NCBI GenBank assembly: GCA_000092065.1
Contig: CP000593.1
From: Ostreococcus lucimarinus
Lineage: Eukaryota
Length of the DNA stretch: 64,000 nucleotides
Reading direction: 5' to 3' (one strand)
Below the pieces are notes generated by a model. The model searched no databases and had not been told where the DNA came from. It saw nothing but the letters and a program-made list of their open reading frames with translations. This document shows positions 1 to 16,943 of this stretch, piece after piece. Position 1 is the first letter of the stretch; each line of letters begins with the position of its first letter. The position numbers and the translations under genes were made by a program.

Positions 1-1571
1 AGGGTGTGGCCCGTGAGCGTGGTGAGCTTGGACATACTCGGATAACGCCAGACGACGATTTGATTTTGGCTGTAGCCGTGCGTGCTGACGATCTCGTTCA
101 CGTTCTTGCTCCAAACCAAGTTGCACACCTGCGAACCGGTGTCGACGCACTGCAACGGCGTGTTGGTGACGGTGTTCCAAAACCGAATGCATCGGTCGGC
201 GGTACCGCCGCCGCTGGCGAGTAAGCCGTGTTGATGTGGAGACCACGCGATGGCCTTGACCGCGGCGGTGTGCTCGCTGCATCGCAAGATTGGTGACGTC
301 GAGTGCGAATTCCACACGAAGAGTTGATTGTCGTTGCCGCCGCTCGCGAGCTGTTGGTCGTCGTAAGACCACTTCAATCCGCACACCTCGCTCTTATGCC
401 CGAGAAGCTTGCTAGAGTAATCGCTCGGTGATCGAATGTCGCGATTCAAGATGGCGCGATCGCGACTCCCGCTCGAGAGCGTGTGCGAGTTCCACGCCAA
501 CGTCCCGGCGCGACTGCGGTGCCCGAGCATCGCTCGCGTCTTTTTGCACTTGGCCACGTCCCATATCTGCACCTCGCCGCTGTTCGTGCCGACGCCCAAA
601 TACGTCCCACGCTGCGTCCACGCCACAGAGGCGACGGAATCGTTAGGAGCGAGCTCACACAGCTTGGTCACCTTGCTAGTGCACGCGCTCCACAGGTAGA
701 CGCACGTTCCCAAACCGACGGCTAACACGTTGCTCGAACTCCAATCGACGAGGTTGAGGTAGAAATCGTCCTGCAACGCCGGCGCGTCGAGTACTTTGAA
801 CGGACTACGCGCGATCTTTCGCGGCGCGCGGCGGCGCGGCGATAAAAGCGTCATGCCGAGCGGTCCGTCGCCGTCGCCGACTGGATTCAACGCGTACGGC
901 GATTCGCCTCGAGCGATCGTCCCGAACGAGCCATCGTCGCGAAATTTGAACAAGTTCCTTCCGGGAGTGGAGTACGAGTACGACGATCCATCGATCGGCG
1001 TCGCCGGCGTCCGCGGTCGGTACCTCGCCGCGCTCGGCGTCGCCGGCGGCGTCACGCCGTACGCCTCGGGCGGACACACGTCTCCGAGCAACTCGCTTCG
1101 CAACAACGCCCCGTACGCCGCGCTCGTATCCTCGCGCTCGTGCGCTCGCGCCGAACCACCATCACCCCTGTGCGCGCCCGCGCTATCAGCATCGCGATTC
1201 GCGTCCCCCTCCCGTCCCCGATCGGCGTCGCCGCGTCCGTCCCGACCGATTCGTCCGCCGCCGCCGCCGCTCGCGCCGCCGATCTCTTCACCCCTACCCC
1301 CTCCCGTCGCCCCGACCCCGACGCTCGCGCACGCCTCCAGCATACTAAAATCACCCCGAAATCCCGCGCTCGCGCTCCTCGACGGCACGTACCGATCGCT
1401 GTATCCCGCGTTCGCCCGTCCCGCGCTCGCGCCGCGTCCCGCGCTCGCCCGCCCCTCCCTCTCCGGCGTCCCCGGCGCGCTCCCATCGCGCGCGCCCGTC
1501 CCGCGTCGCGTCGAGTCCTCGAAAATCAATCGCCGCGCCACGTCCACGCCGCGATGCCCCCCGTTCGCCAT
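1..1571 (-). CDS. Cdc20/Cdh1 (Fizzy-family) APC/C co-activator; 3' end of CDS (C-terminus) lies beyond the window start
   Basis: The minus-strand frame is open from the window edge up to an ATG at 1569-1571, with an in-frame TAG further upstream near 1820. Translation gives MANGG..., a C-box DRYVPSR, then RKIARSPFKVLDAPALQDDFYLNLVDWSSSNVLAVGLGTCVYLW..., WD40 blades, and the Cdc20/Cdh1 hallmark AVKAIAWSPHQHGLLASGGGTADRCIRFWN ... THGYSQNQIVVWRYPSM. It is absent from the ORF track because no stop falls inside the window. Confidence 0.85.
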   Translation of the reverse strand, partial: MANGGHRGVDVARRLIFEDSTRRGTGARDGSAPGTPEREGRASAGRGASAGRANAGYSDRYVPSRSASAGFRGDFSMLEACASVGVGATGGGRGEEIGGASGGGGGRIGRDGRGDADRGREGDANRDADSAGAHRGDGGSARAHEREDTSAAYGALLRSELLGDVCPPEAYGVTPPATPSAARYRPRTPATPIDGSSYSYSTPGRNLFKFRDDGSFGTIARGESPYALNPVGDGDGPLGMTLLSPRRRAPRKIARSPFKVLDAPALQDDFYLNLVDWSSSNVLAVGLGTCVYLWSACTSKVTKLCELAPNDSVASVAWTQRGTYLGVGTNSGEVQIWDVAKCKKTRAMLGHRSRAGTLAWNSHTLSSGSRDRAILNRDIRSPSDYSSKLLGHKSEVCGLKWSYDDQQLASGGNDNQLFVWNSHSTSPILRCSEHTAAVKAIAWSPHQHGLLASGGGTADRCIRFWNTVTNTPLQCVDTGSQVCNLVWSKNVNEIVSTHGYSQNQIVVWRYPSMSKLTTLTGHT

Positions 1572-1856
1572 CCCGCGCGCGCCGTCGCCGCGAATCAGCG
1601 TCGTCGTCCCGGCGCTCCCGAGACGCAATTCCCGTCCGTTTTCTCGCGCGTGGGACGTCGGCGCGCGCGTTTTCGGTTCGCGTCTCGGCGTCTCGGCGTT
1701 AAAGCGCGCGTCCGCTCGCGATCGGCGCGGTCGAGCGGTCGTCGTCGCGCGCGACGCGCGTCGCGGTGCGTCGGTCGTCGCGCGGTCGCGTCGCGCGGTC
1801 GTCGTAATCCGTGTGTGACGCCTTCCGACGACAGTGATACTAAGTCACGACACGCA

Positions 1857-1971
1857 GACGACGCGCGCAAAGTCGTATTCACCGGGGCGAAACCGCGATC
1901 GCGACGCGTGCCGAATGTATACATAAACGCGAACGACGCGCGCAAAGTCGTATTCACCGGGGCGAAACCGC
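1857..1971. repeat. Two identical 40-bp direct repeats (gacgacgcgcgcaaagtcgtattcaccggggcgaaaccgc) about 35 bp apart, in the divergent promoter between the Cdc20-like and RRM genes
   Basis: Exact duplication seen at about 1857-1896 and 1932-1971. Confidence 0.8.
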
Positions 1972-2535
1972 CATGAACTTTCGACGCGCGACGTGACCTT
2001 TGGGCGCCACGCGCGCCCGGAGACGGCGCGCGCGCGTCGGCACGACGCGACGCTCGAGGACGCGGGAGACGCGCGATGTCGCCGCCGACGCCGCGCGACG
2101 TCGATCGCCCGTCCCCGCGCGCGCCCGCGCCGAGACGCGCGACGCGAGGCGACGACGACGCGGGAGACGACGGCGTCGCCGTCACGCGCGCGAATGCGAA
2201 AAATGAAAATGAAGCGAATGCGAATCGAACGGCGCGCGCGTCGACGACGCGCGAGGACGCGCGCGAGGCGAACGGGAACGATGGGAAAACCGCTCGAGAG
2301 CCGACGAGGGTGCGCGCGACGCGCGAACGGGCGATGCGATGGCGACGGGAGGGAAACATTCGGGAGATGGGCGATCTTTCAAACGGCTGGTGATTTTGAA
2401 AGATTTTTTAAACGCGAGGACGCGAAGACGCGAGGGCGATCGGGGCGCGGTGAAGGCGCGCGAGAGACTGACGAAGGCGCGAAACGTGGATTTTTAACGT
2501 CGCAGAGCGCGTCGTACGAGTCGAGCGAACGACCG

Positions 2536-4545
2536 ATGATGACGCCGTCGTACATGGAGTGGTATCGAGCGGCGATGGCGAACGGCGGCGTGGTGCCGGC
2601 GGCGGGGACGCCGTTGCAGGTGGTGTCTCAGCACGAGTTCGCGGTGCCGGTGGTGGTGCCGGTGAACTTAATGCCGGGTGGGGAGGGTATGTCACCGCCT
2701 GGGGTGGCGGATATGGGGTACGGGGGGTACGATCCGCACGCGATGGCGGCCGGTTCGTACGCGCCGGCGGGCGCGTACGGGGTGCCGCCGCCGATGATGA
2801 TGATGGGCGCGCCGGCGCCGCCGGGGGCGTACGGTGAGTACGCATACGCGGCGATGACGGCGGCGCAGCACGAGTATTACGCAGCCATGCATAACGCGCA
2901 TCATTACGACCACTACGGGTACGTGATGCCGCCTTACATGGGCGCGGGCTTTGTCCCTGGCGGTCGCGGATACGGCAGGCGATCGCCGGGAGGTCGCGGC
3001 GGTCGAGTGGGAGGTCGTGGCGGCCGAGGTCGCGGCGAGCAGTGGCGTAATGGTGTGCACGTGAACGGTGGTATCGTCGGTGGCCGCTTCTACGGCGCCA
3101 GTGGACGATATTTCGGCGATGGACGTGCGAACGAAAAGGCGGTGCCGTACACCGTCTTCGTCAAGGATGTGCCGGCGAGCGTGAGCGAACGCGAATTAGC
3201 GGATGTTTTCGCCTCGTGCGGCCGCATCATAGACTGTCGCATGTGCGGTGATGCGAACACACACAAGTTTAGCTACGCCTTTGTGGCGTTTGAGTGCGCC
3301 GAGGCGGTGGATCGGGCGTTATTGTTGGACAAGACGCCGCTCCACGGGAAAAACATCATGGTGAAGAAGAGCGACACCGCGGTGATCCCAGTGAACCCGT
3401 TACTGCTACCGCAGAATGAACGAGAGGTTGAATCGTGCGCGAGGACAATTTACGTCGCAAACGTCGACAAGACCGTGGACTCGCACGCGTTGAAGTTACT
3501 TTTCGAGGACCGCGCCGGCCCCGTCAACCGCTTGCATTTGCAAGTGAAGAACAACGCCGTGGCGAATGTAGCCTTCGTAGAGTTCGTCGACCTCGAAAGC
3601 GTGGGAACCGCGCTGCATTTGACGGGTGAACAGCTTGGAAACCGCATGATTCGCGTGAGTGCGTCAAAGACGCCGCTCCGTTTGCATCGACGAACGAATC
3701 ACGGATCCGCGGCTTCGACTTCGGGCGACTCGTCTGCCGAATCGCAGCGCGCAACCATGCCACCGTTCCCTTACCCGTACTCGACGTCCACCCGGACCAT
3801 CGGTGATGAACCGACGACGCCGGAGTCGCCGCCGTGCAAAGTTTACGTGAGGAACATTCCGAAAACTTTATCTCCAGGGAGTCTCAGGGCGATGTTTTCC
3901 GAATGTGGACAAGTGAGACACGTCGAGTTGCTCACCAACCCAAAGAGTAAGTTTCCGTACGCTTTCATAGACTTTGAGGACAACGAAGCGGTAAAGCGCG
4001 CGTTGGATTTAGACGGCAAAGAAGTGGATGATTGCCAGCTCAAAGTTGAGATCTCGCACAGCAAAAAGCGCGCCCTGACACGGCCATTGGATCCAGTAGC
4101 GCAAGAAAAGGCGGATCGCACGGTTTACGTGACGGATATCGACCCTGAGATCGAACCGACGCTCGTGCGCGACAAGTTTGAGGAGGAATGCGGTGAGGTG
4201 GCGTTATTCTGGTACAAGGCGTTCGAAAAGGGCGAGAAGCAAGCCATCGCCTTCATCGAGTTCGCTGAACTGAGCTCTGTGGGTAAGGCGTTGAAGCTGT
4301 GTCGGACGCACTTTTTGTGTGACTCGCGCTTGGTCAAGGTTCGACACTCCGTCACAGCGTTGACACCCAAAGAAGGTCATCCCGGGACGTGCCACACTCC
4401 TGAATTAGACAGCCCCGCGAGCTCGAGCGGTGATGAAGGTCCGGATGATCGCGAGAGCGTCGTGCGTAATTTATCGTCTCCGCTCGACGCCGAAATCGTC
4501 GCGGCGAAGGTTGAGAAGTTAGGCATGAAGAACGCCGCGGCGTAG
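2536..4545 (+). CDS. RNA-binding protein with four RRM domains and a Gly/Tyr/Arg-rich (RGG) region; its RRMs resemble the CID / PABP-interacting type
   Basis: Four RNP-type domains (TVFVKDVP...FSYAFVAFE; RTIYVANVD...VAFVEF; KVYVRNIP...FPYAFIDFE; RTVYVTDID...IAFIEF) and an RGGRGGR stretch. RTVYVTDID...CRMCGD resembles plant CID8-13 RRMs. The ORF-track start at 1993 is GTG; the ATG chosen is at 2536 (MMTPSYMEW). Upstream in-frame ATGs at about 2197 and 2281 are possible alternatives. Confidence 0.75.
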   Translation: MMTPSYMEWYRAAMANGGVVPAAGTPLQVVSQHEFAVPVVVPVNLMPGGEGMSPPGVADMGYGGYDPHAMAAGSYAPAGAYGVPPPMMMMGAPAPPGAYGEYAYAAMTAAQHEYYAAMHNAHHYDHYGYVMPPYMGAGFVPGGRGYGRRSPGGRGGRVGGRGGRGRGEQWRNGVHVNGGIVGGRFYGASGRYFGDGRANEKAVPYTVFVKDVPASVSERELADVFASCGRIIDCRMCGDANTHKFSYAFVAFECAEAVDRALLLDKTPLHGKNIMVKKSDTAVIPVNPLLLPQNEREVESCARTIYVANVDKTVDSHALKLLFEDRAGPVNRLHLQVKNNAVANVAFVEFVDLESVGTALHLTGEQLGNRMIRVSASKTPLRLHRRTNHGSAASTSGDSSAESQRATMPPFPYPYSTSTRTIGDEPTTPESPPCKVYVRNIPKTLSPGSLRAMFSECGQVRHVELLTNPKSKFPYAFIDFEDNEAVKRALDLDGKEVDDCQLKVEISHSKKRALTRPLDPVAQEKADRTVYVTDIDPEIEPTLVRDKFEEECGEVALFWYKAFEKGEKQAIAFIEFAELSSVGKALKLCRTHFLCDSRLVKVRHSVTALTPKEGHPGTCHTPELDSPASSSGDEGPDDRESVVRNLSSPLDAEIVAAKVEKLGMKNAAA

Positions 4546-9100: not shown

Positions 9101-9227
9101 CGTCATCGTCGACGCGAATCGTTGCGTCCGAATCCGAATCGTAGCCCTGCGGCGCCCCGCATTCCGCGCACGTCGCCGCGCCGCCGCGCACGACGGCCCG
9201 GCACGTCGCGCACCGCGTCGAATCCAT
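6177..9227 (-). CDS. Large hypothetical protein with an N-terminal C4 zinc ribbon (C-x2-C-x10-C-x2-C), an acidic tract and a C-terminal TM segment
   Basis: Continuous 1000-aa ORF; the first ATG is at 9225-9227 (MDSTRCATCRAVVRGGAATCAECG). The track start at 9236 is GTG. No confident family assignment. Confidence 0.5.
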   Translation of the reverse strand: MDSTRCATCRAVVRGGAATCAECGAPQGYDSDSDATIRVDDDDDDDDSSHYARDARDSSASDADSSTSASSTTRRRREVESREREMEESPEALKLLYMLSLYTDASQKQSKSKSAVSNNNNNKRSPWIRELPLLVLVYEGIVRNAVFDYDYAPKSEKIFGACPRYLNVSEEGRDDLDDLRELGFITALKVTSETYDHSTLLKISKKGSEFLQRMTASGRFTSAMRQSVDSLVHEAGHLLEVRYDRESSDFFLTVPSIGVRIRSTITDVEDVPYVSSPYIPPHMLSSDAFTPNALNGHKKAKRVLGGAVQSSRDIRDPRLSESILLDSVKIIVTEYVPMGSNEMVSFCRKLGTGDRVAGGMFTAEASATQDEFNMVVGINADNKTELKVLDVDETRFVNVEADLLATGAPKSNLVQQQIEVFGINFRENGAITYGIVVNGIADRIRNDISVDLLARLLSDVHEDTSSLVGNLFSERQRSMLNITYKGEPDNRDKFTCIIAERATPKLKAAAYMDGEDNENELKQVIGATFYAYDLNEQEVIVFGSRGVVVFGPRTERHHKLLATYSAFQARSLFIKSVFSSCFALNDELKKTRALIETYQIDPTNVTRIRSRLADHTTTVTILSATQQFVLESLENVDTSREKLSADMSDGASQVLYDLFQLEPSWKRLQRRAVDLEKVIAACVNDLESLREMNAVIGSRRKLRINEAIEGTTKNLEDAFRAQARNSTTLEVTQVILSGTLAFDILDRFTGQYLSFTEIRWAVEAVQPYIVNVPAVWFILNMLAWSALGGGIVYLMRYLAYMHCSVETKKLTLNKPIHLSRWRRFIATRNVESTAFKEENNRRVVKYGWTEPIDVKKWKGTPPKINVTIDERYGFILQAMIIINKRTCTLSGDAVWRQFWSDVFVARNVHDQSRELFDTDTGDRLQTAEYSSEEEDETRRDVTAKIIGIDNRKSTLKWRDGRQILAQDDTDDDIDSDEEAIAKTGDLTFEGFVASRSLKLAREEEKAKKKRAARMEK

Positions 9228-9483
9228 CGTATCCACCGATGGATTCGACCGCGGAGTGACGACGAACGAACGAACGCGCGAAAACCACCGACGTCCTCGC
9301 CCGAGCCCTCAACCTGTAACATTCGCGATCGCGGATCGACGGCGTCAAGCCGCGAAGATCTGTCGCAAACCCACCATCGAGCGACGTATAATACCAATTA
9401 TTCGTCCACCTCGCCGAGTTAAGCCTCGAAATAAAGAGCATGGGCAGTCGAATGTCCGCGATGTTGTGCGTATGCATAAACAG

Positions 9484-9597
9484 TCTTCCTTAACTCAGCT
9501 GGTAGAGTGTCAGACTGTTAGGAAAAAGTCTCCGTCGAATATGACGGCTGCTCCGATAGAGATCTGGAAGCCGCGGGATCGAAACCCGCAGGAAGAG
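9484..9597 (+). tRNA. tRNA-Asn(GTT)-like sequence with a 41-nt intron-like insert; more likely the SINE head than a functional tRNA gene
   Basis: Cloverleaf as described above. A functional gene is less likely because the downstream 130 bp are shared with the second copy, which lacks the 5' acceptor stem. Confidence 0.3.
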
Positions 9598-9725
9598 ATG
9601 TGTCGACATCAAACCTTACTTTTTCCCATACCCGATTGTCCGTGATGGAAAAGCGACACGACAACACTGTGACTTTCGTCGTTTCGGGGTGACGGATAGT
9701 ACTTTAAAAAATTTATCGCTATGAG
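9484..9725 (+). mobile_element. tRNA-Asn(GTT)-derived SINE-like element, full-length copy: tRNA-like head at 9484-9597 plus a roughly 130-bp tail
   Basis: The head folds as a tRNA: acceptor tcttcct/aggaaga, D-arm actc-agctggta-gagt, anticodon stem tcaga/tctgg with loop ctGTTa, T-arm gcggg-atcgaaa-cccgc, and a 41-nt insertion at the canonical intron site. Positions 9498-9725 are about 98% identical to 15433-15660, including roughly 130 bp beyond the tRNA-like part. Confidence 0.6.
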
Positions 9726-9840
9726 TAATAAAAATAAACTTTTTTTTTGAGTTGGGGCACCCCAACATGATAAAACCGCACATCGACGTTGATGTACCGC
9801 ATGTAAGATTTCTCCAGAACCAATCGTGTGAGTGAAGTGG

Positions 9841-10338
9841 TCAAGCCAAGCCGCGTAACTCATCTACCGTAAATTGATACTTGTCGAGACTGCGCTTCGA
9901 AGGCAGCGTGCCGCGCGCTCGGGCATTCTTGAGGCACGTCTTGCGCAGTATTCCTTTTGCGTGCTGCTTGTAATAATTGAGTTGTCTGTAGTTACCATCG
10001 CCGCCGTCCCGCTTCGGCGTATATTGAGCTCTGCTGTAGGCTGGACTCTCGTCCACGTTCTCGCGGCACGCGTGTTTCTGGCTGCGTCCAGCAGCTCGGG
10101 AGTTGAATAAGCCGTCACGCTTCTCTCTCATGTAGGCACCTTTACGTTGATGGAGCTCTCCAGCTGGAATGTCCTTTTCGAGAACTCTCACGTCCGCGTC
10201 GCCAAACGTGAAGATTGGATGTCGTGCGTATTTATGCGAGGCAAGGCGCGCTCTGAGCGAACCCGTCGTCGATCCGATGTACGTTTTGTTACATTTCGCA
10301 TTATCGCTAAACATTTCGTACACGCATCCCGACGGCAT
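9841..10338 (-). CDS. Small GIY-YIG nuclease-domain protein
   Basis: ATG at 10336-10338. N-terminus CVYEMFSDNAKCNKTYIGSTTGSLRARLASHKY matches the GIY-(10)-YIG...R...H catalytic motif. It lies in an AT-rich island next to the SINE copy. Confidence 0.6.
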   Translation of the reverse strand: MPSGCVYEMFSDNAKCNKTYIGSTTGSLRARLASHKYARHPIFTFGDADVRVLEKDIPAGELHQRKGAYMREKRDGLFNSRAAGRSQKHACRENVDESPAYSRAQYTPKRDGGDGNYRQLNYYKQHAKGILRKTCLKNARARGTLPSKRSLDKYQFTVDELRGLA

Positions 10339-10516
10339 TTGTCCTGGTTACCTATCTATCCCTAAGAAAATATTGTTGCCAAAAGTGCCTCCTCCTGCGG
10401 TTTGCAGTCACATCCGAGAGACCATAGGTACGCGTATCGCTGCGTGGGCTGCAAGGTCCGGAATGTAGATACCGAACCGCCTGATTTCACACCTGGACGT
10501 TCGTGATCCGTCGAGA

Positions 10517-10707
10517 CCTGACGAAATGACGAACTTGTTTTGTCGTCCACAAATTCGTCAACCCGTCGTTCGGTGACACTTTGTGTGTACCAATGATGAA
10601 AATGACGAAATGTTAAAATATTTTAATGTTTATTTTTATTTTAGATCTATGACAAGCAACAGTGTGGACCTTTATGAAAACAGTTCGTCATTCGTCATTT
10701 CGTCAGG
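10517..10707. repeat. MITE-like element or hairpin: terminal inverted repeats of about 18-25 bp (cctgacgaaatgacgaac ... gttcgtcattcgtcatttcgtcagg) flanking a roughly 150-bp AT-rich core
   Basis: The reverse complement of the right arm matches the left arm; the arms contain an internal gacgaat tandem. Confidence 0.45.
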
Positions 10708-11169
10708 ATCCAAACCATGGTCTTTTTGGTGTCTCGTTGAGTCTTCATATTGCAAATGTACGAATTACAAAATTAGTATGAGCACCAGACGACCGCCGGC
10801 GCGAGCTCCGTCTCCCCTGTGTACCCATTGTCCTTCAGCCACTCGAAGCACCCGTCGCGGTGAATTTCCCAATAGACGCCCTTCTCGTCTCTACCTTGCC
10901 TCAGGTGGTCCTCTTCCATTGGGACCCTGTGGCCCTTTTCCTTCTTGAAGAAGTCCTTGAGCTTATTGCCGACCTTCGTCGCGCTATCTTGACCGCGCGC
11001 AGCCGCTGGCAACCACGTCTGGTATTCGATGAAGATGTCACTGTGTGCATAAAAATGACTTGCGCTCACATCGGTGTGGGCTCACTATAAAGGACAAGCT
11101 TACATGTCGGAAGAGTTGCCCGAGTCCACATCTCCACCCTGTTCCGCTTCAGTGTCACCTAGAAAGACA

Positions 11170-12810
11170 TCAGACTAAGCCGTCGTTTTGAGAGGGCGCC
11201 GACTTTGCCTTTGGTTTTGCCTTCGACTTTGAAGTGGGTTGCGGCCTGATCTCCTCTTCGATCTCCTCGTCGTCGACCAAATCTTCGTCGATTTCTTCGT
11301 CGTCTTCGTCATCGACTTCGTCGTCTTCGTCTTCGTCGTCTTCGTCTAGAAAGACATCACCCATGACTGCTCTCCAGCCATCAGAACCCATTTCGAATTC
11401 TTCGTCGGTCAAGAGGCAAGAGTCCAACGTTGATTGAATTTCATCGTATTTAAGATCCTTGCCAATGAACACCAGTTCTTGTCGGCGATCACCATAAGGC
11501 CCCTCCCAGTCTTTACGAAGTTCTTGCTTTATCCCCTGTGAGCCGACCCAAGCATTTTTATTCAGCGCGGTCCATCGGCTTGATCCTTCGAGAGAGTAAA
11601 TATTACCAGCCTGACTGAAAACAATTATCAAGTCGTGGGCATCACTGAGCCACGTTACACCCTTCGAACGTAGCAGCACACCAATTTCACCTTCCCTTTT
11701 ACGGCGCTTGAGTTTCATCGCTTCTTGTCGCGCTCGAATATCTTTCACTGCACTCCAGTCTACACTTGGTGTCTCTTCATCTTTTTCTTCATCACGGTCA
11801 TCGGCCTCGAGGGAGCTGAAGAAGCGCTCGACAAATGAGCCTAAAAACCGTTTGGGATGAAAAGGTCTTCTGGCTCGGTAAATGAAAGACGTAATACCGA
11901 ACCGACTATCGTGACGTGTTTGGGAAGAACTTGGTGCAAGCGTGACCTCGCTTAAGGCTGTTTCTCTCATGCGAGCTCGCTTACAGCATGGAGACTCACC
12001 TTTGTCCCTAGCGCCGGCGCAGCATGACTTCACAGATGTTGCTTCTATCTCTTGTTCCCATGTTATGAAACCAGCAAAGTCATTCTCTTTGTAAAGTTTT
12101 GTATTGACGATTCGCGTAACGTCGATCGCGCCGTTCACAGCTTCAAGAATATCAGCACGTGAATTGAGAAGTTGTATCTGCGCTTTAATCTCGGCGAGTT
12201 GTTCGTCATCGACAGTGTCGACCTTGTTCAATACGACGACATTCGCGTACTCTATCTGTTCAGCCAACAATTGAGAGTAAGACTGCCTGTTCACAGCTGA
12301 CGCCCTGAAAGAATCAATCATGTCGAGAAAGTCACCTGCAGCGATGACCGTCACGCACGTATCCAGCCGCGCCAGTGTGCTCAAATGTTCATGCTCATCA
12401 ACGTGCGCAGCTTCATGATCGTGATCGTCCTCACAATTTGCGAAGAGTTTCGCAATTTCCGCCGGTTCCGACACTCCTGATGCCTCTACGATCATGTAGT
12501 CAAAATTGCCACTCTTGGCCATGTCCCCGATTTGTTTTACAAAGTCTCCGCTCAACGAACAGCACACGCATCCGTTCTGCATGGCAACCACCTCGTCGCT
12601 CTGCAGCAAAGCGGAATCATCGATTAATTTTTTGTCGATGTTCAACTCCGCGACGTCGTTCACGACGACGGCACACCGAAACTTTCCGTTCGCGTCTCGC
12701 TTAGCTTCGAGCACGCGTTTCAGAGTTGTCGTCTTCCCAGCGCCGAGGAACCCGCACAGCGTTGTCACCGGCAATCGATTATGATTGGCGATTGCGGCGG
12801 GTGTGGACAT
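11170..12810 (-). CDS. COG0523 / CobW-domain GTPase (zinc metallochaperone, ZNG1/CBWD-like) with a His-rich segment and an acidic C-terminal tail
   Basis: P-loop GFLGAGKTT and NKVD; His-rich CEDDHDHEAAHVDEHEH; CobW C-terminal domain; poly-D/E tail. The track start at 12915 is GTG; the first ATG is at 12808-12810 (MSTPAAIANHNRLPVTTLCGFLGAGKTT). Confidence 0.85.
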   Translation of the reverse strand: MSTPAAIANHNRLPVTTLCGFLGAGKTTTLKRVLEAKRDANGKFRCAVVVNDVAELNIDKKLIDDSALLQSDEVVAMQNGCVCCSLSGDFVKQIGDMAKSGNFDYMIVEASGVSEPAEIAKLFANCEDDHDHEAAHVDEHEHLSTLARLDTCVTVIAAGDFLDMIDSFRASAVNRQSYSQLLAEQIEYANVVVLNKVDTVDDEQLAEIKAQIQLLNSRADILEAVNGAIDVTRIVNTKLYKENDFAGFITWEQEIEATSVKSCCAGARDKGESPCCKRARMRETALSEVTLAPSSSQTRHDSRFGITSFIYRARRPFHPKRFLGSFVERFFSSLEADDRDEEKDEETPSVDWSAVKDIRARQEAMKLKRRKREGEIGVLLRSKGVTWLSDAHDLIIVFSQAGNIYSLEGSSRWTALNKNAWVGSQGIKQELRKDWEGPYGDRRQELVFIGKDLKYDEIQSTLDSCLLTDEEFEMGSDGWRAVMGDVFLDEDDEDEDDEVDDEDDEEIDEDLVDDEEIEEEIRPQPTSKSKAKPKAKSAPSQNDGLV

Positions 12811-12986
12811 GATGTACGGCGATCGACGTCTCCGCGCGCGAACGAGCCGAAGAGGCGTCGCGAAGTGCGGCGATGCGCGCGCGTCGTGCACGTGTCGACG
12901 ATTCGCGTCGTGCACGTGTCGAGGATCGTCGTACGCGACGCCCCGCGAAGCCCATCACGGATCGCGTCGCGACGCGCGTCGTAAAC

Positions 12987-13143
12987 ATGTCGACACGCAT
13001 GTCGACATATTTACCCACGCGCGTGTACGCATTGAACCCCGTGATGCATCTATATACGAAAAACGTCTCGACGCACATGTCGACATATTTCGACATATCC
13101 AAGTACCACCGAGATGTGTCGACACTGCGGCGGATGTCGACAT
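12987..13143. promoter_or_regulatory. Cluster of five perfect 10-bp palindromes RTGTCGACAY (ZDRE-like zinc-deficiency response elements) plus one half-site, in the promoter shared by the COG0523 and ZIP genes
   Basis: ATGTCGACAC at 12987-12996; ATGTCGACAT at 12999-13008; ATGTCGACAT at 13077-13086; half-site TCGACAT at 13090-13096; GTGTCGACAC at 13116-13125; ATGTCGACAT at 13134-13143. All lie between the CobW ATG (12810, minus) and the ZIP ATG (13273 or 13369, plus). Confidence 0.6.
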
Positions 13144-13272
13144 TTTGTCGTTCGCGAGTCGTGACTTATAAACGACCGCCCTCCATCGCGCCGGTTCGGT
13201 TCGTATGCCGCTTTAGTTTGTGCGCAGCCGCACTTACCGACGCCGGCGAAGACGACGACGACGACGGAAACG

Positions 13273-14802
13273 ATGACGAACGAAAACACGAAGAACACGA
13301 AGACGACGATGCCGCCGCGCGAACGCGCACGCGGTGCGAGGACGGTCGAGCGACGACGAGGGCGAACGATGCGCTGCGCGAGCGCGCTCGGTGGTGGCAT
13401 CGCGATCGTCGCGAGCGCGCTCGCGCAGCGCGGCGCGCACGCGTCCGGCGCGCACGCATTCGAATGGGCTGGAATCTTTGAGACGCCAGAGAATGAATAC
13501 GTGTGGCAGGCGCAAAAGGTGGCCGATAAGTACGCCGCCGATACCATGAAAATGGTCATCTACGACGAAATCGCCGCCGGACACGACGAGCTCGAAGCCC
13601 GCGAGGATAGCGGTGATACCGCAATCGGGGGAGCTTGTACGACGGCTAAGATACGAGATAGTGTTTTGACACCTGATAGTGGGTGTGTCAACCTTGAATT
13701 TGACAACACCTGGCACACGACGCCGTTTAAGATTAATACGACTGGCATCGACGCGATCTCAATCTTCGCTGAGCACGTTCCCACCGAGTTCGAGCGCGAC
13801 GCGCACTATCTCAAGGACCTCCACGGAGATGACGTGGTGCCAAAAGCTTCACTTCCCGAAGCATCCACCGTGAGCGAATCGAAATCAAAACCGTGGGCCA
13901 ACGCCATTGGGGCGGCAATTATCGTCAATATCGTCACACTTTCTGGTGTGGTCTTTCTCATCCCGAGTATCGCTAAGAAGCAGAAAGCGTACCCTGAAAC
14001 TGTGAGTTGCACAATTAACTCGTTTGCCGCCGGCGCACTTCTTTCGGCTGCGTTTTATCTGATGTTCTACGAAGCCACGCATTTAATCAAACCTGCTGGC
14101 TCGGATGAGGCAGAGCAGACCGCATGGTGGGCTTCCGCTTCTATCTTCGGCTTTCTCATGGCCTACTTCATCGACTTTGGTATCTCTGTCGTGTTCCCAA
14201 CTCTTGGAAATACAGCGAAGACAACCGATGCGGAACTTGCAGTCAAAGGCGCTCAAGATGACTGTGATACTTGTACTTGTAACTCACACAAGTATCGCGT
14301 TCGAAGTGGTATCATTCTTGGAGATTTCATGCACAACCTAGTGGATGGTATTTTCATTGGCTTCGGCTTTCTGAACTGCGACAGTACCATGGGATGGTCG
14401 ATCACCGCCGCGACCGTCTATCACGAAATCGCTCAAGAGCTTGCTGACTACTTGGTGCTCGTAGACCCCTTCCAGGGCGATCTCGCGCCGTTGCCGACGC
14501 TGACTTTAAACTTCGTTTCCGGCTTGAGTGTCATTCTTGGCGTCCTCATTAGTGTTGGATCGGGAAATAACAACGACTTCTGGCATGGACTGCTGCTCGC
14601 CTTCGGTGCTGGAGTCTATCTGCAAATCGCCGCCGCAGAGTGCATGCCCCGAGTATCAGTGAGCGCCACTTCACCTCGTCTTCGCGCGACGAGCATTCTC
14701 ACCTTCATCGTCGGCGTTGTTGCCATCAGTCTCGTGCTCCTCAACCACAAGCATTGCACAGGCGGTGGCGGTGGCGGAGACTCACACGCACACGCGCACT
14801 AA
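13273..14802 (+). CDS. ZIP-family (Zrt/Irt-like) metal transporter
   Basis: ZIP signature in TM helices (GDFMHNLVDGIFIG ... YHEIAQELADYLVL). ATG at 13273; an alternative ATG at 13369 gives a signal-peptide-like start MRCASALGGGIAIVASALAQRGAHA. Confidence 0.85.
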   Translation: MTNENTKNTKTTMPPRERARGARTVERRRGRTMRCASALGGGIAIVASALAQRGAHASGAHAFEWAGIFETPENEYVWQAQKVADKYAADTMKMVIYDEIAAGHDELEAREDSGDTAIGGACTTAKIRDSVLTPDSGCVNLEFDNTWHTTPFKINTTGIDAISIFAEHVPTEFERDAHYLKDLHGDDVVPKASLPEASTVSESKSKPWANAIGAAIIVNIVTLSGVVFLIPSIAKKQKAYPETVSCTINSFAAGALLSAAFYLMFYEATHLIKPAGSDEAEQTAWWASASIFGFLMAYFIDFGISVVFPTLGNTAKTTDAELAVKGAQDDCDTCTCNSHKYRVRSGIILGDFMHNLVDGIFIGFGFLNCDSTMGWSITAATVYHEIAQELADYLVLVDPFQGDLAPLPTLTLNFVSGLSVILGVLISVGSGNNNDFWHGLLLAFGAGVYLQIAAAECMPRVSVSATSPRLRATSILTFIVGVVAISLVLLNHKHCTGGGGGGDSHAHAH

Positions 14803-15026
14803 TGAGAGCGGTAAAAAAATGTCAATTACTATCAAATCAAGTTGTGGCAAACACACCCACGGCCACTGACGGAGATCTATTTTTCAAGCTAGAGGATCAT
14901 ATAAATTGTAAATCGAAACGCTCTTCGTAATTTACGGCACCTGTTCCTCGATCTCCTGGCGAACATCGATGAATTATTTCGATAAGATGTCCCAGATGTT
15001 ACCCACACCACGGTACTTGTGAAGCT

Positions 15027-15369
15027 TAATCCAGATACGCGCGCACGCCTTTCTGAAGCATGGTCGGTACCTCGGCTTTCAACTTGTCTGGGAGCGTCGC
15101 GTCGGCGTCCTTGACCTCGCGCAGAAAATCGAGCACCCTATTGGTGGAGAACTGTCAGGGAAGGATCCAAGGTGGCGGCATTTGATACACAGGTTGCGCC
15201 AGGCTTTGTTAGACAGCAACGGACTCGATTTTACATCATCCGCCAGTATTGCAATTCCTACACGCTTCCCATTTAGCCAGTGCTTGGGCTCCTCGAATTG
15301 GTCTGTTTCGGGATTATACAGACTGAGCATCTCTGGGGTCAAATACTCGTCCCACACGGAGGCGTTCAT
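15027..15369 (-). CDS. Small hypothetical protein, tentative two-exon model
   Basis: Exon 1 runs from the ATG at 15369 (MNASVWDEYLTPEMLSLYNPETDQFEEPKHWLNGKRVGIAILADD). A putative GTAAAA donor, TCTAAC branch and pyrimidine-rich ...ccttccctgacag acceptor join it to exon 2, FSTNRVLDFLREVKDADATLPDKLKAEVPTMLQKGVRAYLD*. Unspliced, the frame reads into a low-complexity tail. Weak model. Confidence 0.25.
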
Positions 15370-15432
15370 CAGGTGCCCATCGAGTTCCTTGTATTGCTTC
15401 AATCTCGTCGCGGTATCTCTGTAAACAATTTT

Positions 15433-15660
15433 GCTGGTAGAGTGTCAGACTGTTAGGAAAAAGTCTCCGTCGAATATGACGGCTGCTCCGATAGAGATCT
15501 GGAAGCCGCGGGATCGAAACCCGCAGGAAGAGATGTGTCGACATCACACCTTACTTTTTCCCACACCCGATTGTCCGTGATGGAAAAGCGACACGACAAC
15601 ACTGTGACTTTCGTCGTTTCGGGGTGACGGATAGTACTTTAAAAAATTTATCGCTGTGAG
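15433..15660 (+). mobile_element. Second, 5'-truncated copy of the tRNA-Asn-derived SINE-like element
   Basis: About 98% identical to 9498-9725 (two to three substitutions). It lacks the 5' acceptor stem and part of the D-arm, as expected for a 5'-truncated retroposed copy, and sits between the JmjC gene's 3' end and a small gene. Confidence 0.6.
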
Positions 15661-15770: not shown

Positions 15771-16943
15771 TCACACGAGTCGCCCCCCCGCGAGATAATC
15801 GGCGACTCGCACGACGCGCGCGTTCGCGTCGAACGCGCCCGCGTGGACGTCGTCGTCGCCCGCCGCGAGCGCGGCGCCTTCGTCGTCGAAATCCACCTCG
15901 TCGAGCGCTCGGTAGCTCTCCATCAACGCGGGATCTTTGGCGGCCATGAGCTTTAAATCTTCCAACACGCGGTCCAGATTGACGTCGTCGACGAAGTTTC
16001 CCGCGAACGCCACCGTGCAATCGAGGTTTCGAACGGCGTGCGGCGAGCCGCCCGGCACGAAAAGCACCTCGCCCGGGCCAAGATCGACGTCCCATCGGCG
16101 CGCGCCGAATTCACGCGGGAGCGGTAACATTCCCATCTCTTCTTGTTCCTCCAACGGTGGCATCGCGGGATCGAGCGTGCCGCGCGACCAGCTCGGCCGT
16201 AAAAACGCGAGCGATTCGCGCGAGAAGACGGTCCATCGCTTCGTGCCGCGCACCACGGCCATGAAAAAGTGCCCCTGCCACTGATCGACGTGCAGGGACG
16301 ATCGCGTGTTCTTCGCGGCGACAAACAAGCTCGGCCACGACCGTGAAAATGCCGTCAATCGCATCGTGCGCTGCATGTAATCGTGTGCCACGTACGCCGG
16401 TACGCGCACGCTCTCCGACAACGACGGCAGCTTGAGCGGAATCGACGTGTCGTACAAGTAACTCCCCGCCCCTCGATCGTCCACGACTTCCGCGAAAAAG
16501 TCCTTTAAATCCAAAACGTCCGTCACCTCGCACGACAGCGTCGCGCGTCGGTGACCATCCTTCCTCGTGACGGCGACTTTTTTATTCCCGGCGCGCCGCG
16601 TCAACCACGCGCACGTCTCGCCGTCCGCGCCGTCCTCCGTCAGCGCGCTCCCGAGCCCCTCGATCACGACCGGGGTATCCGTGGCGACGTATTCGAGTCG
16701 AAAACGTCGCGGCGTGAGATCGCGCGCGTGCACGCGCGCGACGTCGCGTCCCGTCGTCGTCGGTTTTTCGACACCCGAATCTGCGGCGGCGGCGGCGGCG
16801 AGCGTCGCGCGCGCGCGCTCGACGCGCGCGACGATCGCGTCGACGTACGCGCGACGACCGTCGTCGGTCTCTCGGGCAGCGCGCGCGGCGAGATCGGCGC
16901 GCTCGACGTCGAGGCGCGCGATCTCTTCGTCGAAAAGCGTCAT
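15771..16943 (-). CDS. JmjC (cupin-like) domain protein
   Basis: ATG at 16941-16943. JmjC core: WQGHFFMAVVRGTKRWTVFS ... EVLFVPGGSPHAVRNLDCTVAFAGNF. Confidence 0.7.
   Translation of the reverse strand: MTLFDEEIARLDVERADLAARAARETDDGRRAYVDAIVARVERARATLAAAAAADSGVEKPTTTGRDVARVHARDLTPRRFRLEYVATDTPVVIEGLGSALTEDGADGETCAWLTRRAGNKKVAVTRKDGHRRATLSCEVTDVLDLKDFFAEVVDDRGAGSYLYDTSIPLKLPSLSESVRVPAYVAHDYMQRTMRLTAFSRSWPSLFVAAKNTRSSLHVDQWQGHFFMAVVRGTKRWTVFSRESLAFLRPSWSRGTLDPAMPPLEEQEEMGMLPLPREFGARRWDVDLGPGEVLFVPGGSPHAVRNLDCTVAFAGNFVDDVNLDRVLEDLKLMAAKDPALMESYRALDEVDFDDEGAALAAGDDDVHAGAFDANARVVRVADYLAGGRLV

Follow-up and report, generated by a model that had tools for sequence, protein, structure and literature searches.

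A probable polinton-like virus relic within a strain-variable, tRNA-flanked segment of Ostreococcus lucimarinus

No free-living eukaryote is smaller than Ostreococcus, which also serves as a model for arms races between algae and viruses. In a 64,000-nt stretch of O. lucimarinus contig CP000593.1 (assembly GCA_000092065.1; hereafter the window), assigned to strain CCE9901 by exact protein matches, we found what is probably, at roughly three chances in four, the relic of an endogenous polinton-like virus (PLV) lying within a strain-variable, tRNA-flanked segment. Positions 9726–11044 would correspond to a non-autonomous PLV relic, made up of the last 90 codons of a helicase gene, a 191-bp palindromic element and an intact GIY-YIG gene. 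This relic forms one end of a 5,935-bp segment, with a fragment of a second viral gene at the other end and two putative cargo genes, COG0523 and ZIP, in the middle; the segment directly adjoins the 3′ side of a tRNA-Asn(GUU) gene, and a 230-bp duplication of the 3′ part of the tRNA and its trailer brackets it. The evidence consists of sequence homologies, gene truncations, repeats and contigs of both allele types. The parts of the relic are as follows:

9726–11044, minus strand: probable truncated endogenous polinton-like virus relic, with the primase-helicase 3′ end, the palindromic element and the GIY-YIG gene.
10773–11069, minus strand: primase-helicase remnant, the last 90 codons of a Prim-Pol + DUF5906 (D5-like) gene, with a fortuitous GTG start.
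10517–10707, no strand assigned: 191-bp palindromic element in which seven TGACGAA/TTCGTCA heptamers surround an AT-rich core.
9841–10338, minus strand: intact open reading frame (ORF) of 165 aa for a GIY-YIG protein of the free-standing homing-endonuclease type, as judged from Foldseek, alignment and the ratio of non-synonymous to synonymous substitution rates (dN/dS).
9809–10396, minus strand: GIY-YIG gene cassette of approximately 570–590 bp, of which separate copies occur.

The initial annotation had reported a 98-codon ORF with a GTG start at 10773–11069 and no recognisable domain. The ORF exists as described, but it is the truncated end of a primase-helicase gene: 84 of its 90 residues are identical to residues 644–733 of a 733-aa protein from contig L002 (E = 9e-60), whose domains are Prim-Pol and DUF5906 (D5-type helicase), and nucleotide homology to full-length copies of the helicase gene stops at window position 11044. 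The whole relic shows 93–97% nucleotide identity to L001, L013–L020 and 13 metagenome loci, in unrelated genomic contexts where the helicase gene is either full length or cut elsewhere, such that helicase end, palindrome and GIY-YIG gene travel as a single block. In the chromosome-scale Ostreococcus contigs L013–L019, which are 94% identical to window 9730–11044, a complete helicase gene is followed by the 191-bp element and then by the GIY-YIG gene, at most about 20 kb from the contig end. The outer end of homology is also constant, at window 9720–9730, in several contexts. At this outer end of the relic, a run of nine T residues followed by a hairpin (GTTGGGGCACCCCAAC) occupies window 9739–9766, and both are kept in other copies of the block. 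L013–L020 represent another Ostreococcus lineage, in which the block with the full-length helicase is subtelomeric. In L014 (5343–6746 and 16082–17182), a ZIP paralogue with 82% nucleotide identity to that of the window directly adjoins the block, with a CobW gene nearby; zinc-type genes and viral debris are therefore found together at two unrelated loci. A PHROGs search with three small ORFs gave no match.

Contig L002 offers a view of a possible parent element. It contains, in this order, telomere repeats, a solo 191-bp element, the helicase gene, a second 191-bp element, a GIY-YIG gene (60% identical) and a 446-aa gene; the telomere repeats, (CCCTAAA)n at positions 1–70, are followed by short tandem subtelomeric repeats, which places this virus-like element at a chromosome end. 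The 446-aa gene encodes a double jelly-roll major capsid protein, and the 733-aa Prim-Pol + DUF5906 gene, of which the window keeps the last 90 codons, represents the replication gene. Next to the capsid gene, L002 and L021 share a gene of 323/334 aa (27% identity) without a Pfam match. Neither a packaging ATPase (FtsK/A32-type) nor an integrase was found among the L002 ORFs scanned, although this 13.6-kb contig may be incomplete, and we found no terminal inverted repeats of a full viral element. PDB sequence searches with the 446-aa protein returned nothing useful. In IMG/VR, neither the helicase nor the GIY-YIG protein had a relative, and true copies of the palindrome and of the 230-bp unit were likewise absent. 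Primase-helicase and GIY-YIG genes are listed among the accessory genes of PLVs (Yutin et al. 2015, PMC4642659), and one or two PLV capsid genes have already been reported in Ostreococcus genomes (Bellas et al. 2023, PMC10120064).

The palindromic element had been described as an approximately 190-bp unit with terminal inverted repeats around an AT-rich core, and this holds: it spans 191 bp, with a 17-nt perfect inverted repeat (10517–10533 / 10691–10707) extended by a 16-nt arm at 88%. Its predicted DNA fold is 4.5 standard deviations more stable than those of shuffled sequences (z = −4.5), and it contains 7 of the 27 TGACGAA/TTCGTCA sites in the window, versus 0.08 expected. The element has sharp ends in three different contexts, in none of which did we find a target-site duplication. 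A metagenome scan with the 17-mer produced mostly chance single hits, together with 17 true copies, all of them just after the 3′ end of a helicase gene, with variable helicase truncation points and outer flanks and, in some cases, without the GIY-YIG gene. Counting these 17, we fetched about 35 copies, at a fixed distance past the helicase stop codon; nearly all copies follow a helicase gene and only one, at L002 328–519, stands alone, with differing flanks on both sides. In L002, the helicase module is bracketed by two copies of the element in the same orientation. We considered a miniature inverted-repeat transposable element (MITE), the label previously applied; the terminal inverted repeats are there, but the lack of target-site duplications and of dispersed copies, and the almost constant tie to the helicase 3′ end, led us to drop it. 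The 191-bp element would rather act in cis as a site for the helicase, with a replication origin or an initiator-binding site as its most likely role, although it could alternatively be a transcript-end hairpin or a promoter. Weak bZIP_2 matches were seen in ORFs near viral debris (L014 4370–5065 and L022 2992–3426). TGACG is the core motif for many bZIP factors, and the joint occurrence of these ORFs with the TGACG heptamers of the element may be a coincidence.

The 165-aa GIY-YIG ORF was correctly recognised and is intact, but its catalytic motif is not clean, as had been claimed. Against PF01541 it scored 16.7 bits, below the threshold of 22.6, and matched profile positions 2–32 only, that is, the first half, whereas motifs and predicted fold agree with the family; the L002 orthologue passes with 26.4 bits, and so do nine of ten more distant relatives, with 24.9–39.6 bits over positions 2–74. 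In alignments including I-TevI, V6-Y7, Y20-I21-G22, R31 and H35 are invariant and N79 is nearly so. The column of I-TevI E75, which we take to be the metal-binding catalytic Glu, contains Glu in all ten of the more distant relatives and Lys in the window protein (Lys66) and its close paralogues P0035 and P0036; this column was read from a MAFFT alignment, because hhalign against I-TevI aligned the N-terminal half only, with low probability. The AlphaFold2 model (predicted local distance difference test score 72.9) had the I-TevI catalytic domain 1ln0 as its top Foldseek match in PDB (probability 1.0, E = 0.02), ahead of Slx1 and UvrC; PDB sequence searches with the protein gave nothing useful. 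Pfam identified no second domain, and no DNA-binding module was recognised in the C-terminal half.

Ten other distinct full-length variants of this gene are intact, and two further copies are frameshifted. Nine of the intact variants were diverged enough for comparison and yielded dN/dS values of 0.09–0.53 against the window gene, which appears to be still under purifying selection. The gene occurs in at least three contexts and in two copies within one locus, where L014 9959–10530 matches the inverted L014 3214–2643 at 94.9% over 572 bp, comprising the gene and some 40–60 bp on each side; in L002, L032 and L103, no such cassette follows the palindromic element. Homologues at E ≤ 1e-30 were limited to six clusters among 1.84 billion representatives. 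Judging from these sequences, the gene behaves as a free-standing homing-endonuclease cassette that probably no longer encodes a working nuclease, and its present product may bind DNA without cutting it, since Lys replaces the Glu aligned with I-TevI E75. Two pairs of NCBI accessions exist for O. lucimarinus, ABO99431/ABP01176 for the GIY-YIG protein and ABO99433/ABP01174 for a JmjC protein (window 15771–16943), so that the reference assembly seems to hold the region twice; a further GIY paralogue, XP_001421474, is on another chromosome.

The relic is part of a larger segment, with these features:

9484–9597, plus strand: tRNA-Asn(GUU) gene (Rfam RF00005, 49 bits versus a gathering score of 29, full-length model match).
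9496–9725, plus strand: direct repeat copy A, 230 bp, with the tRNA from the D-loop to the 3′ end plus 128 nt of trailer.
15431–15660, plus strand: direct repeat copy B, 98.7% identical to copy A over 230 bp.
9726–15660 (equivalently 9496–15430), no strand assigned: present/absent segment of 5,935 bp, with low GC content at third codon positions (GC3) and viral fragments at both ends.
11170–12915, minus strand: COG0523 (CobW-type) GTPase, putative cargo (Pfam cobW 6e-41, CobW_C 1.5e-18).
13273–14802, plus strand: ZIP-family metal transporter, putative cargo (Pfam Zip recorded on metagenome counterparts).
15118–15423, minus strand: internal fragment of a second virus-associated gene (residues 113–212), cut at repeat B.

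The tRNA-Asn gene has the anticodon GUU, a 42-nt intron at the canonical 37/38 position and a run of five T residues about 22 nt downstream, and its minimum-free-energy fold shows the acceptor, D and T arms. An ARAGORN scan missed it because of the intron, and Rfam detected it. Copy B, in turn, is a 5′-truncated tRNA: without the first 12–14 nt, and so without the 5′ half of the acceptor stem or the beginning of the D-arm, it starts in the D-loop, runs 128 nt beyond the tRNA and closes the right side of the present/absent segment. Located 5.9 kb away, it is the only second copy of this unit within the window, and in 1.16 Mb of related DNA the 230-bp unit was found only at the junctions of this one locus; therefore, it is not a dispersed element. 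What the initial annotation had listed as a full copy of a short interspersed nuclear element (SINE) is a genuine tRNA gene plus a flanking duplication, and we rejected a tRNA-derived SINE on these grounds.

The COG0523 translation contains a CxCC motif and a His-rich stretch; COG0523 and ZIP are a pair typically linked to zinc supply. The fragment at 15118–15423 is 64% identical (E = 8e-48) to a 308-aa ORF located after the primase-helicase in L022, and viral debris is therefore present at both ends of the segment. The 308-aa ORF itself matches TNP-like RNase H weakly and below threshold (E = 9e-4). This 100-residue fragment is the only candidate in 9726–15660 for a recombinase, integrase or transposase, none of which was found intact.

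Allele classes were established from metagenome contigs carrying the same JmjC protein. Contigs L144, L151, L006 and L008 have filled alleles like that of the window, and L149, L152 and L145 have filled but diverged alleles with a different CobW paralogue. This third haplotype (L149 11544–16509; L152; L145) has a ZIP gene 94–96% identical to that of the window, followed by a 404-aa CobW-family gene only 30% identical to the window COG0523. Conversely, three contigs from wild populations, L147 (526 kb), L148 and L150, lack the whole segment: window 15435 onwards is joined directly to the sequence ending at 9514, and the JmjC side runs straight into a single tRNA gene and the 1019-aa gene. Filled alleles are longer than empty ones by exactly 5,935 bp, a stretch delimited by the 230-bp repeats, and both share identical flank haplotypes. 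The empty site agrees across three assemblies from different pipelines. The L148 repeat is a mosaic, without the 87-nt insertion described below yet with single-nucleotide polymorphisms of the B type; the exact stretch shared by A and B in other contigs is only about 76 bp, less than the k of 119 in the name of the L148 contig, which argues for a real recombinant if the repeat copies in that sample resemble those of other contigs. These alleles were read from metagenome assemblies, and a mis-join is possible, especially for the single contig L012. There (1–3941), window 10551–9588 is joined via the repeat to 15523–13095, that is, the ZIP side to the GIY side, as would arise from an excised circle or from a tandem duplication, although it may be an assembly mis-join.

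Recombination between the 230-bp repeats would delete the segment or re-insert a circle, and this would explain the coexistence of filled and empty alleles in wild populations. As to how the segment may first have arrived, the microhomology between junctions and insert is limited to 2–3 nt, GC and GAG, and this fits template switching at a stalled fork or end-joining as well as a Campbell-type crossover.

The tRNA-Asn gene and its truncated duplicate also carry two present/absent insertions: one of 100 nt in the D-loop (window 9497|9498; 11 contigs), carried by most wild tRNA-Asn alleles, and one of 87 nt in the T-arm (window 9588|9589; 8 contigs), found in many repeat copies. Examples are L147 11510–11609, L010 3383–3469 and 3559–3658, and L151 9831–9917; the reference strain and L011 have neither. 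Both start with GTAAGT, have ACTGAC upstream of a pyrimidine-rich stretch and end in CAG, which is the signature of spliceosomal introns, and repeat B starts at precisely the site of the 100-nt insertion. Rfam calls no tRNA once an insertion is present in the gene. We rejected bulge-helix-bulge tRNA introns and a repeated introner family, as the insertions fold no better than shuffled sequences (z = 0.07), show no bulge-helix-bulge-like structure and have no further copies in 1.16 Mb of related DNA. A 129-aa ORF across the tRNA was also discarded as a host gene for these GT-AG introns, because it has no Pfam match and a composition judged implausible for a protein. At the sequence level, the insertions look like spliceosomal introns within a tRNA gene.

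Base composition is consistent with a foreign origin. In 200-bp windows, GC content falls to 0.41 at 9600–9799 and 0.35 at 10600–10799, versus 0.56–0.69 in the flanks, which bears out the local drop noted initially. The GC3 of the GIY-YIG ORF is 0.60, that of COG0523 0.54, that of ZIP 0.62 and that of a 107-codon ORF 0.61, all lower than the 0.71–0.82 of the flanking genes. The AT-rich island was thought to stop at 11170, but the tract of low GC and low GC3 extends to approximately 15.7 kb. Likewise, the proposal of foreign or mobile DNA stands for the 1.3-kb unit, found in multiple contexts, but not its placement between the 1019-aa gene and COG0523, since the variable unit covers 5,935 bp, includes COG0523 and ZIP, and extends from the tRNA gene to the JmjC gene. 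The evidence supports that the tract is foreign or mobile DNA rather than a conserved host gene, because the 1.3-kb unit is found in unrelated contexts, the GIY-YIG gene is multi-copy with lower GC3, and three wild contigs lack the segment. Outside the segment, the two 13-nt arms of a perfect inverted repeat, separated by 7 nt (GTCGAATCCATCG / CGATGGATTCGAC), lie at window 9217–9249, across the start codon of the 1019-aa gene.

Several other explanations deserve consideration. The segment might be a still-active integrative element that excises as a circle and re-integrates at tRNA-Asn through the 230-bp attachment-like repeat; it would then be a virus-derived cargo element with zinc-supply genes, moving at tRNA-Asn, possibly in circular form, as a eukaryotic counterpart of a bacterial genomic island, and the D-loop break point of the tRNA would mark a recurrently cut site. 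All four types of junction were seen (A-A and B-B in filled alleles, A-B in the three empty ones, and B-A, the circle or tandem type, in L012 only), empty and filled alleles have identical flank haplotypes, a tRNA gene forms the border, GC3 deviates, and the gene of the far-end fragment is weakly RNase H/transposase-like. However, the absence of an intact recombinase demotes site-specific integration to a minority option, to which we give both as mechanism and as island little credence; moreover, the circle-type junction is seen in a single MEGAHIT contig, possibly misassembled at repeats that both have the 87-nt insertion, and ordinary homologous recombination between the 230-bp repeats accounts for the loss of the segment without dedicated machinery. 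Even less probable is the derivation of the relic from a giant virus, either a prasinovirus or another nucleocytovirus, instead of a PLV.

The picture that emerged from the initial annotation, of three independent mobile elements (a tRNA-derived SINE, a MITE and a homing-endonuclease gene) assembled by chance, is very unlikely. The sharp ends of the palindromic element, its solo copy with different flanks on each side and the occurrence of the GIY-YIG cassette alone would suit it, but the tRNA-like unit scores as a full tRNA and is confined to the junctions of the locus, the palindrome keeps its fixed distance past the helicase stop without a target-site duplication, and the three parts of the relic move as one block. 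Finally, the initial annotation had named a conserved, single-copy, SLX1-like host gene as the finding that would refute its proposal, and the data already contradict such a gene to the point of making it the least credible of these explanations. The ORF is indeed intact, with dN/dS around 0.3, and Slx1 is among its weaker structural matches. SLX1-type nucleases combine a GIY-YIG domain with a C-terminal RING/PHD finger. The window protein, by contrast, has 165 aa and no such finger, has I-TevI as its best structural match and very few close homologues, and its gene is multi-copy, with variable contexts, GC3 unlike that of the host and absence from the empty alleles. We therefore retain a PLV relic in a strain-variable, tRNA-flanked segment as the favoured explanation.

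A role in defence against giant viruses is suspected for integrated PLVs. The locus described here would illustrate how PLV debris persists in a very compact genome, with one viral gene kept under selection after the apparent loss of the Glu aligned with the I-TevI catalytic residue. Viral debris also travels here together with genes for metal uptake; the segment that contains both varies among wild strains and so may contribute to niche differences in zinc-poor water. Furthermore, the locus provides a case, testable by polymerase chain reaction, of a tRNA gene as a hotspot of structural change in a eukaryote.

Among known systems, the PLVs of protists are similar in that genes for a double jelly-roll capsid protein, for a primase-superfamily 3 helicase and for a GIY-YIG nuclease are present at the related loci, and in their integration in an algal chromosome with a GC content unlike that of the host. 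They differ in that the window contains a 1.3-kb relic without capsid, ATPase or integrase genes, joined to cellular-type metal genes, in the lack of terminal inverted repeats of a full element and in that the related locus is also without a packaging ATPase. Phage T4 Seg proteins are free-standing GIY-YIG proteins, and SegB acts in a tRNA gene region. With such free-standing homing endonucleases (I-TevI; T4 Seg) the GIY-YIG gene shares a small product whose model matches the I-TevI catalytic domain, and a discrete cassette that is present or absent between collinear viral genes and lies about 120 bp from a tRNA-derived repeat; unlike them, it has Lys at the I-TevI E75 column, no intron or intein host and a C-terminal half in which no module for DNA binding is recognised. 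MITEs resemble the 191-bp element in having terminal inverted repeats around an AT-rich core, and tRNA-derived SINEs resemble the 230-bp unit in containing tRNA sequence, but here there are neither target-site duplications nor dispersed copies, and the supposed SINE is an intact tRNA gene with one flanking duplicate. Bacterial tRNA-linked islands likewise lie between a tRNA and a repeat of the 3′ part of that tRNA, and have a deviating base composition, nutrient-acquisition cargo and strain-variable presence, the last seen here in metagenome assemblies; the differences are the eukaryotic host, the lack of an integrase, the 230-bp repeat reaching 128 nt past the tRNA and the 2–3 nt microhomology. 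The kind of element is thus already known, and it is its particular arrangement that is new.

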